Below, piece by piece: positions 9,039 to 14,250 of a stretch of 64,000 nucleotides of DNA. The translations under genes were made by a program, and so were the position numbers. This DNA is from Acidobacteriota bacterium (GTDB taxonomy: Bacteria > Acidobacteriota > UBA6911). Below the pieces are notes generated by a model. The model saw only the letters and a list, made by a program, of their open reading frames with translations. It was not told where the DNA came from and searched no databases. The stretch's first letter is position 1, and every line of letters begins with the position of its first letter. The DNA lies in assembly GCA_963664705.1 (NCBI GenBank), contig OY761556.1:6208001-6272000 (forward strand), written 5' to 3'.

Positions 9039-10244
9039 TCACCTGGCTGCGAATTCCAGCGCTATTCTTTTCCAGATTGTACGGATTCCGCGCAGCGGAA
9101 ATTCCCACCAGTGGTCAATACCCCAGATCCATTGCATATATCGGGGAAAACCCAGAAAGGCGGGCCGGAAGCGGCGGCGGAAGGCGGATCGTTTGTACAG
9201 GCCATAGCGAACCCGAAACAGGTCGCGCGTAGTCAGGTTGGAGACTCCTCGCGTACGGACCTTGATCCAGTCGCGCTCCATCGATGCAACCGGAAGGCTC
9301 CGGAGCTGCTTCAATACGAGACCGGGAATCGGGGCGTCGACCAGTTCATTCAGATAGGGAAGCATATATTGCAGGACAAGGGTGAGGTTTCTCTTGCGAG
9401 CCTGTGCCAGCAACCGGGCCCAGTCAAAGTCGGGAGTCGTGGCAATCACCGCGGAGGCATCCGCAACCCAGCGCATGGGGGCCACCGCATTCCATTCCAT
9501 TGCGTGGGAGCAGATGTGCAGCAATTGATCCGACGGCGACAAAGCGCGGGACTCTTCGCCACCGCAGATAATTGGAATCGATCCTTCCCACAGATCGACG
9601 TCAGCCTCAGGTCCCAGGCACTCCTGAAATACGTGCCAATGAAGATCCAGCTTGATATCCGTTTCTTCCCGGGCCAGGTTGCAGGCTTTTACCGCGAGCA
9701 GGTATTCCGGAGTGATTTTCTGCGGGCAATCTTTCTCGGGCTTCCATCCTGATTGGATTAAACGCTGAAGTGCCTCAATGGCCTTATTCGTGGGAATCAG
9801 CACGTCGATATCTGCCATTGGCCTCAAGCCGAGGTCTCTGTAATAAAGATGTGCCAGGGCTGCTCCTTTGAGAATCAAGGTGGGGATTCCCATTTCGTGG
9901 AAGGAGCGGAGGACCGCGGAAAGTCGGTGCAGCGCCAGTTGATTCTGATACCAGGCCCTGCGATAGATTCCTTTGAACCGACCAAGCAGATCGGTTTCCA
10001 CTCCGATGCTTTTCAGGTTGCGATAGAGCAGCGGGATCAGCCTGAAGGAACCGTAATCGAGATGATCTATATCCGCCAGGGATCGCCATTTTTCCCAGGC
10101 TTCGATCCCGTGTGGCACAGGCAGGAGAGCTGCGCGCAGCATCCATTGCTGTTCAGGCGTCGGCCATGCGTAGCCGGATTCTCCGTCAATGGCGAAAGGC
10201 GGCGCGCATATCTCAAATGGACGGTTCATTTTTTTTATCTTCAT
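9039..10244 (-). CDS. Nucleotidyltransferase family protein (NTP_transf_5-like)
   Basis: Motifs LKGAAL..LYY...GLRPMADIDVL and DLHW. Confidence 0.88.
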   Translation of the reverse strand: MKIKKMNRPFEICAPPFAIDGESGYAWPTPEQQWMLRAALLPVPHGIEAWEKWRSLADIDHLDYGSFRLIPLLYRNLKSIGVETDLLGRFKGIYRRAWYQNQLALHRLSAVLRSFHEMGIPTLILKGAALAHLYYRDLGLRPMADIDVLIPTNKAIEALQRLIQSGWKPEKDCPQKITPEYLLAVKACNLAREETDIKLDLHWHVFQECLGPEADVDLWEGSIPIICGGEESRALSPSDQLLHICSHAMEWNAVAPMRWVADASAVIATTPDFDWARLLAQARKRNLTLVLQYMLPYLNELVDAPIPGLVLKQLRSLPVASMERDWIKVRTRGVSNLTTRDLFRVRYGLYKRSAFRRRFRPAFLGFPRYMQWIWGIDHWWEFPLRGIRTIWKRIALEFAAR

Positions 10245-10944
10245 TGAAGCGTTGGACGGCTGCCTGCCGACGCCGGTCCAAAGCTGTTTTTACAATGCGT
10301 ACAAAGTCGACCTGCGAAGAACGTTCGACAATTGTCGTGTTGCGTCCATGTACGCGACGCCGATAGACGATTTCCGGCAACATTTGAGCCTGGAGTCCCG
10401 CTTCCATCGATTTGGCAAACCAATCGACAAAATCCCCCACTCGCCAGGTGTCGTCAAAAAGCCCCACTTTGAAAAACGCTTCGCGCCGGATCAGCATGGC
10501 GCTCTTCATATATGCAGGCTGGGGTTTATCCGGGATCAATAGCCGGCCGGCAACCTCCATCGGCATGTCCGGACTCCGAAAAAAGAGGCTGTGCCCAAAG
10601 ACCATATCAATGCCGGGCCGAGACTGTAGAATTGCTGCCTGCTTTTGCAGTTTGTCGGGTTGCCAGATGTCGTCGGCATCAAGGAATGCAAGATAGTTGC
10701 CCTGCGATAACTGGATGCCCCGGTTTTGCGTTGCCGAAATGCCCCTGTGAGGCTGGCAGTCGCAATAAATGGAGCGGCCGAAGGAACCTGCCACCGCTGC
10801 CGTATCATCGGTAGATCCGTCATCCACGACAATCACCTCAAAGGGCGGCAGAGACTGCTGTAGAACACTGTTTATCGCCTCTGACAGGTAGTCGGCAGTA
10901 TTGTAGGCTGGAATGATGACGCTGATCCGCATATCGTCAGGCAT
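10213..10944 (-). CDS. Glycosyltransferase family 2
   Basis: SVIIPAYN, VVDDGSTD and the FLDADD (DxD) motif. Confidence 0.92.
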   Translation of the reverse strand: MPDDMRISVIIPAYNTADYLSEAINSVLQQSLPPFEVIVVDDGSTDDTAAVAGSFGRSIYCDCQPHRGISATQNRGIQLSQGNYLAFLDADDIWQPDKLQKQAAILQSRPGIDMVFGHSLFFRSPDMPMEVAGRLLIPDKPQPAYMKSAMLIRREAFFKVGLFDDTWRVGDFVDWFAKSMEAGLQAQMLPEIVYRRRVHGRNTTIVERSSQVDFVRIVKTALDRRRQAAVQRFNEDKKNEPSI

Positions 10945-12745: not shown

Positions 12746-13453
12746 TCAAGTCTTCTCTGTCTGCTGCTTTCTGTGTATTGATGCCCGGATCAGGCGGAAC
12801 ATATCATTCCACAGTGCAAGCGCCTGGTTGGAGTCATTCTTTGCGTGCAGTCTTCGATAGAGCAGAACGTCCCGTAAAACCATCCTTTGAATGCCCAGAT
12901 CCTGCGCTCGAAAGAACCAGTCCGAGTCATTTCCGACCTTGTACGAGGGATCAAAAAGGCCGACCGTACTCAAGGTTGTACGGCGAACCATGAGCGCACT
13001 GGGCAAAAAGGAGGGTGCCGGCTGATGCAGCAGTTCCGGCTTAAGACCGGCCGGAATCGGCGTTCCGCTTTCAAGAATCATCTTCATGTACGAAACCACA
13101 TAGCCGACCTGTGGATTAGTTCGCAAATAGTGGGCCTGGAGACTAAGTTTACCGGGGGCCCACCAGTCGTCTGCATCGAGGAATGCGAGAAACTCGCCGC
13201 GTGACTGTTCTATGCCTGCATTTTTTGCTGCGCCATGCCCCTGGTTGACCTGGTGAAAATAGCGCACGCCGGGCCATTTCCGGGCGATTCGGGCGGTGGA
13301 ATCTGTGGAGCCATCATCCATGACGATGACTTCTATCGGGCGATAATCCTGTTCAAAGACGCTGGCCAGCGCATTGGGGAGAAAATCCTCTCCGTTGTAT
13401 ACGGGAATAATGATGCTGACCAGGTCTCTTTCGTACTCTGCCGTAATCATCAA
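12746..13453 (-). CDS. Glycosyltransferase family 2
   Basis: SIIIPVYN, MDDGSTD and FLDADD. Overlaps the upstream GT2 by ATGA. Confidence 0.92.
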   Translation of the reverse strand: MMITAEYERDLVSIIIPVYNGEDFLPNALASVFEQDYRPIEVIVMDDGSTDSTARIARKWPGVRYFHQVNQGHGAAKNAGIEQSRGEFLAFLDADDWWAPGKLSLQAHYLRTNPQVGYVVSYMKMILESGTPIPAGLKPELLHQPAPSFLPSALMVRRTTLSTVGLFDPSYKVGNDSDWFFRAQDLGIQRMVLRDVLLYRRLHAKNDSNQALALWNDMFRLIRASIHRKQQTEKT

Positions 13454-14250
13454 TGCTTTAGCCTCTCGGGTTCTGCATCGACCGTTTCACAAGCCTCCAG
13501 GCGAGGCAGGGACGAGGCCGCCCCCCCGCCGGCGGCTCTCCGCCTGTCGAGCGACTGCTTCAGCATTTGCACAAGGAAGTGATTGTCCACCTTGCGGTTA
13601 TTCGTCAGATTTCCTTCATGACGACGATAATGCAGCACCAAACCGCGATGGATGTGGATATGGGTTCCGAGTTCGCGGGCGCGCATGAACCAGTCCCAGT
13701 CATCGCAATGCAATAGTTGCGTATTTAGCGGCCCCAATTGGCGAAACAGGGATTTTCGGATCAGGGTGCTCCCATTGCCCATAATCAGCTGCGGGCTCGC
13801 TGGCAACTGGAAAGGCAAATGGTCCGGATCCATCCCCGGATCGGGCCATAGAAGCGCATATCCCATGACCACCTGGATTGTGGGATCTTCTTTAACCGGG
13901 GCCAGTTGCAGCTCGATGGAATTTTCGGGCCAGACGTCATCGGCATCCAGCAGGCTTATCCATTCCGAGGTGGCTTTCGCAATGCCTGAATTGCGTGCTG
14001 CCGGAGCACCCTGGCGTTCCTGCCGGTAATATTGGACTGACGAGCCGAATTGCATGGCGATCCGCGGCGTGCTGTCGGTGGATCCATCATCGACGATGAT
14101 GATTTCGCGCGGACGAATCGTTTGGCGAAGAGCGCTGGAAATCGCCTCGTGCAGGTACTTCTCCCCGTTGTATACCGGGATGATCACGCTAACGGATTCA
14201 TCGGGCTTGGCATCGGATGGTTTCATGGCTCTCTGTTGTTGCCGGGTCAT
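13450..14250 (-). CDS. Glycosyltransferase family 2
   Basis: SVIIPVYN, VDDGSTD, LLDADD and DDWDW. The start is uncertain (14226, 14250 or 14295). Confidence 0.9.
   Translation of the reverse strand: MTRQQQRAMKPSDAKPDESVSVIIPVYNGEKYLHEAISSALRQTIRPREIIIVDDGSTDSTPRIAMQFGSSVQYYRQERQGAPAARNSGIAKATSEWISLLDADDVWPENSIELQLAPVKEDPTIQVVMGYALLWPDPGMDPDHLPFQLPASPQLIMGNGSTLIRKSLFRQLGPLNTQLLHCDDWDWFMRARELGTHIHIHRGLVLHYRRHEGNLTNNRKVDNHFLVQMLKQSLDRRRAAGGGAASSLPRLEACETVDAEPERLKH

Follow-up and report, generated by a model that had tools for sequence, protein, structure and literature searches.

An RRE protein with a built-in invariant tail, a candidate primer for phospho-glycan assembly in an Acidobacteriota gene cassette

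What does a peptide-recognition protein recognize when it is encoded among tailoring enzymes, with no peptide beside it? The question is raised by a six-gene cassette in a 64,000-nucleotide stretch of DNA from an Acidobacteriota bacterium (GenBank GCA_963664705.1, contig OY761556.1, positions 6,208,001 to 6,272,000), hereafter the window; the source genome is one 6.9-Mb contig and is 98% complete. The cassette encodes a recognition element (RRE) of the kind that binds leaders of peptides that are ribosomally synthesized and then modified post-translationally (RiPPs), an HprK-like kinase, three family 2 glycosyltransferases (GT2s) and a nucleotidyltransferase (NTase). A preliminary description proposed either a tailoring-only pathway acting on a peptide or protein, or a peptide-primed glycan assembly line. 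The key part missing from it is a conserved leader-plus-core tail fused to the RRE itself. This RRE-tail may be a self-loaded carrier, a protein-bound primer for phospho-glycan assembly, a reading that we prefer and judge close to, though short of, an even chance. The features are as follows.

13450..14250, minus strand: GT2 glycosyltransferase, cassette subtype C (PF00535, E 8.5e-34)
12746..13453, minus strand: GT2 glycosyltransferase, cassette subtype A (PF00535, E 3.9e-36)
12035..12508, minus strand: RRE of the lasso-B1-like PqqD fold with fused leader-like motif and tail, 157 aa (PF05402, E 2.5e-11)
12086..12175, minus strand: tail of the RRE protein, residues 112-141 (from conservation and the AlphaFold2, AF2, model)
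10937..12025, minus strand: P-loop kinase of the HprK/phosphoenolpyruvate carboxykinase (PEPCK) fold (PF07475, E 1.6e-4; TIGR04352, E 3.3e-11; both below cut-off)
10213..10944, minus strand: GT2 glycosyltransferase, cassette subtype B (PF00535, E 3.9e-31)
9039..10244, minus strand: NTP_transf_5 nucleotidyltransferase-fold enzyme, PsmN-like (PF14907, E 1e-43)

Open reading frame (ORF) coordinates and Pfam matches bear out the gene order first described: six minus-strand ORFs transcribed as GT2, GT2, RRE, kinase, GT2 and NTase, with overlaps at three of the five junctions (13453/13450, 10944/10937 and 10244/10213) and gaps of 237 nt and 9 nt at the other two. The GT2s, the PqqD domain and the NTase score above the Pfam cut-offs, the kinase only below those of the HprK-type models. 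The RRE gene starts at an ATG at 12508 with GGAGG ahead of it; for the subtype C GT2 the ORF finder reaches a GTG at 14295, and an ATG lies at 14250. The genes are real and intact, and their grouping is not due to chance, because the same gene set recurs across phyla. Tail patterns located 305 such loci in GTDB species representatives, the best 80 of which were examined.

The tail fused to the RRE

At 157 aa the RRE protein is about 65 aa longer than a discrete RRE. An alignment of homologues resolves it into an RRE domain, a variable linker, a leader-like FxxPxL motif (F112, P115, L117) and a core-like tail of the form DPxH...GWP, in which D122 is followed by D130-P131-I-H133 and G139-W140-P141. 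Across 69 homologues, mean column conservation is 0.90 in the core-like segment (residues 123-141), 0.71 in the leader-like segment (112-122), 0.54 in the RRE and 0.20 in the linker. A tail more conserved than the RRE beside it is unlike a variable RiPP core; such invariance is the reverse of what a RiPP core shows and would be typical of a carrier attachment site.

Wider sampling retrieved 478 RRE homologues. Among 366 distinct tails, with residue frequencies taken after filtering for the DPxH pattern, F112, P115 and L117 occur at 88, 98 and 89%, respectively. In an unfiltered set, 7 of 345 sequences miss the DPxH pattern; two are tail-less RREs and five keep the Asp, Pro differing in three and His in two, and D130 is kept in all 343 tail-bearing sequences. 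The residues that persist are D122, D130, P131, H133 and GWP.

The RRE domain itself is of a familiar kind. Its top Foldseek matches are the TbiB1-leader complexes 5v1v and 5v1u (TM 0.87 on the target), its profile matches are TbiB1, PbaB1 and TfuB1, and its ESM Atlas matches are PqqD clusters only. In the AF2 model, residues 111-120 reach a pLDDT of 96 and form a beta strand at 117-120, and the linker scores 65-69. Taken with the mode of leader binding by RREs described in the available text of PMC13381572, this model confidence predicts that the RRE grips its own fused leader in cis.

No separate leader peptide came to light. The tail is single-copy, with no second leader or tail below E 5 among 188,803 reading-frame segments of the genome, and the 80 loci contain no credible separate leader-bearing small ORF (three chance-like matches). 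Nor was the tail found as a free-standing peptide; four short tail matches all appear to be N-terminally truncated RRE proteins. A 26-aa ORF at 12653-12733 lacks the leader motif, and NCBIfam holds no model for the tail. A tailoring-only pathway that acts on a separate peptide is unsupported, since the RRE has the leader-like motif in its own chain and what follows is invariant rather than a variable RiPP core; the peptide-primed glycan assembly line is the better of the two original readings.

Recurrence of the cassette and the company it keeps

Phyla among the best 80 of the 305 loci include Bacteroidota, Ignavibacteriota, Acidobacteriota, Nitrospirota, Chloroflexota, Bacillota, Cyanobacteria, Verrucomicrobia and Patescibacteria, and a profile search yielded 1,170 representatives of 50%-identity clusters at E<=1e-30. 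All 39 well-flanked loci contain the kinase, 38 a cassette GT2, 34 the NTase and 33 all three; the RRE opens the cassette in 34 of the 39, and the kinase gene directly follows it in 54 of 72 loci. Full-length RRE-tail proteins occur in 7 of 61 related genomes, the source genome counted, which marks the cassette as accessory. Three genomes of the window's own genus (L107, L108 and L109) carry a minimal set of kinase, NTase, RRE-tail and one GT2, and these copies are more divergent than many cross-phylum copies.

A reverse search anchored on kinase patterns in metagenomes, in which 80 of 87 loci were kept, showed that all 63 loci whose RRE is intact also have the tail; in three more the first RRE is cut off, and 14 have none, the kinase standing at the contig start. 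In 24 of these 80 metagenome loci the tail lies inside an RRE-kinase fusion of 650-890 aa, and no free copy was seen there. Longer natural proteins also occur. Those of 780-890 aa represented by P0122, P0125, P0131, P0139 and P0165 (loci L112-L139, L145 and L174) carry three RREs and then the kinase, with a leader-like strand after each RRE and the DPxH...GWP core only on the first. P0123, P0124 and P0133 contain two or three RREs and bear the core on the final one, and P0220 is a tandem-RRE protein with DPPLP in place of DPxH...GWP, possibly from a sister family with another core.

The glycosyltransferases are dedicated to the cassette. Its 158 GT2 domains group into a single clade (support 0.86), and the genome's 25 other GT2s all fall outside it. 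Within it, subtype A comprises 39 sequences from 35 loci (support 0.99), subtype B 62 sequences from 57 loci (0.75) and subtype C 54 sequences from 44 loci (0.98); three domains fall in no subtype. All three subtypes occur together in 19 of 64 loci, the window included, and C-A-B is a frequent order. Of 13 ORFs that fuse the kinase to a GT2, 12 contain subtype C and the thirteenth is cut off. The window presents a rearranged form in which the C and A genes have moved upstream of the RRE. Its three paralogues are only 35-36% identical to one another, which indicates an old division of labour, not recent duplication.

Around this core, accessory genes vary. A Pfam scan of 114 neighbours (about 110 of 165 listed) found mostly sugar-tailoring functions, namely GT4, GT10 and GT25 glycosyltransferases, sulfotransferases, methyltransferases and epimerases, with occasional radical SAM enzymes. 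In 4 of 80 loci (L021, L048, L054 and L086; a cut-off gene occurs in L077), an AGE/cellobiose-2-epimerase-like gene (E 1.5e-41, far below cut-off) separates the NTase from the GT2 trio. A cassette-specific ATP-binding cassette (ABC) exporter has only generic matches in NCBIfam and PDB. Copies that are 41-70% identical to three reference members occur in 18 of 80 loci, and 14 of the 39 well-flanked ones have the exporter.

This exporter bears on the possibility that the system is a conventional linear RiPP with its precursor fused to the RRE. A host protease would then free the modified tail, or the chain would cleave itself at D130-P131, and the product would leave the cell as a phospho-glycopeptide. 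The leader-core layout matches that of lasso precursors and of those of linear polyphosphorylated peptides (LPP), known from the lppA-K-B-S-D-N system of Paenibacillus alginolyticus (Popov et al. 2026, PMC13381572, available text). Asp-Pro self-cleavage has a precedent in eukaryotic GDPH motifs, where the accessible part of PMC8267560 describes it as yielding an anhydride that can link to glycans; for the cassette this is no more than an analogy. However, the source genome has no orthologue of the exporter (best 26-36%), nor does the window, and no enzyme to release the tail was found. An S24-like peptidase query gave no match in 166 loci (1.82 Mb), no S24/S26 Pfam match occurs among 200 neighbouring ORFs scanned, and no match to TIGR02228 (SpI-like) exceeds the cut-off in the genome or lies near the window. 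An M29 aminopeptidase-like gene 104 nt downstream of the cassette was considered as a dedicated leader peptidase and rejected, as it has no match in the 166 loci. A released, variable core is disfavoured because the core is nearly invariant across phyla and because its only copy lies inside a fusion in those 24 metagenome loci. We regard the linear RiPP as improbable.

The machinery of lasso peptides is missing as well. No cyclase, B2 peptidase, radical SAM enzyme or transporter occurs among 17 window ORFs scanned, in keeping with the first description of the adjacent genes. A lasso-cyclase query found nothing in the 166 loci, the control being its recovery of the source genome's four asparagine synthetases. 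A B2 query over the same loci matched only L044 and, weakly, L039, each time beside a separate, tail-less RRE. These two places (L044:1-707, Oscillatoria sp. PCC 10802; L039:4865-8192, a Bacillota metagenome-assembled genome, MAG) lie 5-10 kb from the cassette and have no cyclase match within the fetched DNA.

In the source genome, the search for B2 and cyclase genes that the preliminary description had called for returned no match to the PF13471 peptidase, and the four asparagine synthetases, all full-length, lie far from both PF05402 genes. The idea that a cognate lasso system elsewhere explains the cassette fails on the same grounds, as these are the only two PF05402 genes and there is no second leader or tail. 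The genome has three NTP_transf_5 genes; the other RRE and NTases lie in separate loci with their own small ORFs. One, at G000:C1:1387770-1395179 (L192, L009, L011), is a second RRE system, with a 70-aa ORF that has a YxxPxI leader and a Cys-rich end, a PqqD protein, a CxxxCxxC ORF, a P-loop protein, an ABC exporter, an NTP_transf_5 gene and an S24/S26-peptidase-like ORF (TIGR02228, E 2.4e-7, below cut-off). From their motifs we take its CxxxCxxC ORF to be radical-SAM-like and another ORF to be phosphatase-like. At G000:C1:3721246-3723754 (L012), a kinase-like gene and an NTP_transf_5 gene are preceded by 94-aa and 80-aa ORFs, the latter with a twin-arginine-like stretch, next to polysaccharide genes; this is presumably an HPr-rel-A set, a type described below, with its own peptide.

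The cassette could still be a decaying remnant of a lasso cluster, or serve a lasso system encoded elsewhere. Its RRE is closest to lasso B1 proteins, and PF13471 is matched at some place in 18 of 44 host genomes. The other 26, many of them incomplete MAGs, have none, like the source genome, and a remnant would hardly be expected to keep intact catalytic motifs or to recur in 305 loci. This explanation is largely refuted for the source genome and extremely unlikely overall.

The same neighbourhoods allow a last reading to be weighed, in which the cassette is an accessory module for surface glycans or protein glycosylation, acting on another host protein or on a polymer of the lipopolysaccharide or exopolysaccharide (LPS/EPS) type, with the RRE-tail as a regulator. 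PMT_2 membrane transferases, fusions of TPR repeats to glycosyltransferases, Wzm/Wzt, GT4, GT10 or GT25 enzymes or sulfotransferases do lie near some loci, and LPP clusters are embedded in capsule loci according to the available text of PMC13381572. Yet Wzm/Wzt-type genes occur in only 3 of the 39 well-flanked loci, and the genes flanking the cassette in the window are unrelated metabolic ones, so that the concern raised at the outset, that homologous clusters might always lie in LPS/EPS loci, does not hold. No target-like gene family recurs in all-against-all clustering, and presence among related genomes is patchy. This module is quite improbable.

The flanks of the cassette add little else. 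A divergent four-gene NiFe-hydrogenase operon lies upstream (14596-18676, plus strand), and its first gene has no homologue near the cassette in 80 other loci. No priming transferase, flippase or ABC-2 exporter, or polymerase occurs among the flanking ORFs. Composition marks no island (cassette GC content 0.54-0.58, like the flanks), and a promoter and terminator scan stayed at chance level (5 versus 3.3+-1.8 and 4 versus 5.8+-2.7). Farther away, a GalB-type beta-galactosidase is flanked by long ORFs without a Pfam or NCBIfam family (883-2712, 5474-6793 and 6812-7225, minus strand), and three adjoining ORF pieces at 21212-23193 (minus strand) make up a local duplication, with 91-96% identity over stretches of 35-83 aa.

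A candidate assembly line on the tail

Both enzymes that would act first on the tail retain their catalytic motifs. In the kinase, H166, the Walker A motif (G181-K187) and D204-D205 are invariant or nearly so in 69 homologues; its AF2 model (pLDDT 92.8) has the PEPCK/HprK fold, with PEP carboxykinases as top Foldseek matches. It scores 42.8 bits against TIGR04352, whose cut-off is 200, and aligns with a lasso-cluster kinase only over a core of 85 columns. Distances among the RREs track those among the kinases (Mantel r 0.68, n=69), a pattern that shared ancestry alone can produce. The NTase keeps K126-G127, R141, D145 and D147 in an alignment of 46 cassette homologues; no solved relative was found by sequence.

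From the fused leader and tail, their conservation, the intact catalytic motifs, the cross-phylum gene set and the three-subtype GT2 clade, we infer the chemical steps of a possible pathway. The RRE would hold its own leader motif and present the invariant DPxH...GWP segment to the kinase, which would phosphorylate the tail; Asp130 or His133 is the most likely site. Next, the NTase would cap the phosphate with a first sugar, an order suggested by analogy to PsmK and PsmN. The GT2 trio would extend a short core glycan on the protein, perhaps in the order C, A, B to which gene order and the kinase-C fusions point. Other hosts may decorate the glycan with GT4, GT10, GT25, sulfo- and methyltransferases and in part export it, the source genome representing a minimal, exporter-less form. 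The glycan would thus be the variable product and the peptide the constant part.

In its most specific version, a RiPP recognition module would have been repurposed as a protein primer, in which phospho-Asp (or phospho-His) on DPxH leads to a sugar-phosphate and then to a host-decorated core oligosaccharide made by the GT2 trio; such a line would run in the cytoplasm without a lipid carrier, would use a non-Ser linkage and would occur in many phyla. As a complete scheme it is speculative and rather unlikely to hold in every part.

The choice of acceptor is a difficulty for this pathway. F112 and D130 are 18 residues apart, the same offset as between the leader Tyr and the phosphorylated Ser3 of LPP precursors in the available text of PMC13381572, a match that is suggestive only in pointing to D130. 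Close alignment had suggested T138 and S35 as acceptors, both rejected after wider sampling, and a C-terminal Ser as a paeninodin-type acceptor was rejected too (Ser in 6% of 328). Simple Ser phosphorylation is disfavoured because 103 of the 366 distinct tails lack Ser, Thr or Tyr between D130 and GWP, because T138 is conserved at 55% and because S35, a leader-contact position, is variable (Ser in 319 of 342, Ala in a divergent group, Gly or Asn in ordinary RREs).

The same facts weigh against the carrier, as they leave it with no conserved hydroxyl acceptor, and several others join them. To our knowledge, no HprK-fold kinase phosphorylates Asp or His. The AF2 model is confident about the leader strand, but residues 121-140 reach a pLDDT of only about 60, and in 5 of the 39 well-flanked loci the fetched flank showed no NTase. 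The agreement in register is one isolated coincidence, and for paeninodin-type kinases the distance is a different one. As far as the accessible text of PMC13381572 goes, LppK is strictly Ser-specific (S3T and S3Y fail), and LppN was without effect in a heterologous test.

The main rival reading is a tail that serves as a docking or activating subunit. Here a self-saturated RRE would scaffold the kinase, NTase and GT2s, whose product would be a phosphorylated oligosaccharide; the acceptor would be a sugar, a small molecule or a lipid. Invariant D, P, H and GWP residues suit a binding motif, the core lacks a conserved Ser, Thr or Tyr, and the tail works while internal to the kinase fusions. Also in favour of docking are the fusion of the kinase to GT2-C in 12 ORFs, the kinase's PEPCK-like fold and the accessory genes, all sugar-tailoring, and the occasional cellobiose-2-epimerase-like gene would suit a free reducing oligosaccharide. 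Against docking, neither a priming glycosyltransferase nor a polymerase recurs, and Wzm/Wzt-type genes are scarce. Moreover, the characterised sets of RRE, HprK and NTP_transf_5 (PMC13381572 and PMC6993621, in the parts available) modify a leader-bearing peptide. Docking is possible, though on balance unlikely, and the self-loaded carrier remains the preferred reading.

The question matters beyond this genome. RiPP-like clusters often encode NTP_transf_5 enzymes and HprK-like kinases, whose chemistry is barely known. The cassette is compact and has no membrane parts in the source genome, and its candidate substrate is encoded within a taggable 157-aa protein, so the question is directly testable. 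If the tail is a primer, RiPP leader logic has been reused for glycan assembly, with a new phospho-glycan linkage.

Relation to known systems

The cassette is widespread and apparently uncharacterised. No description of the family was found in the literature, where coverage of subscription journals is mostly lacking. The main text of two RRE-Finder papers (PMC7470986 and PMC12710340), as far as available, does not describe it, although their supplements might list members; the latter gives 21% of PF05402 proteins as oversized without another domain.

Four groups of systems invite comparison with the cassette. HPr-rel-A sets (TIGR04352 kinase, TIGR04353 PqqD), found in EPS loci, combine an RRE, an HprK-related kinase and an NTP_transf_5 enzyme without a cyclase. 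Both the kinase and the RRE of the cassette fail these family cut-offs; TIGR04353 matches 4 of 69 RREs (best E 5.4e-5), and the window RRE not at all at E 0.001. Borosins, which are precursor-enzyme fusions, and carrier proteins such as LysW or glycogenin resemble the cassette in that the substrate or attachment site is part of the same chain or sits on a small protein of its own, marked by an invariant motif; their folds and chemistry differ from those of the cassette, and the likeness is an analogy only.

Like the cassette, the tailoring pair PsmK and PsmN of the pseudomycoidin/paeninodin type combines an HprK kinase that has a DD metal motif with an NTP transferase bearing DxD. In pseudomycoidin, phosphate is added first and hexose then on the phosphate, a step requiring the PsmN-type enzyme, whose mechanism is left open in the available text (Zyubko et al. 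2019, PMC6993621). PsmK and PsmN, however, act on the C-terminal Ser of a cyclase-made lasso peptide, whereas the C-terminal residue of the RRE protein is not conserved, and the cassette lies outside the lasso class because it has neither cyclase nor B2 protein.

LPP is a further parallel, and the cassette works like the tailoring arm of both LPP and pseudomycoidin. In the text available for it, it has in common with the cassette a discrete lasso-type RRE, a kinase resembling HprK, an NTP transferase, the absence of a cyclase, a [Y/F]xxPx[L/V] leader motif and a glycosyltransferase-rich setting, and some cassette loci share the ABC exporter. LPP, in contrast, is a system of Bacillota with a separate precursor of variable C-termini, an SpI-like leader peptidase, a Ser acceptor and an MsbA-like exporter, which the window lacks. 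Its motif ends in Thr-x-x-Ser; in the same register, positions -1 and +3 of the fused tail are Leu and Asp. The cassette is not an LPP member, because it has no SpI peptidase, separate precursor or Ser acceptor; its leader and core form part of the RRE protein and the core does not vary, no peptidase was found, the GT2 trio belongs to the core set, and it crosses phyla. As a set of RRE, kinase and NTase, it is distinguished by the built-in invariant tail and the dedicated GT2 trio.

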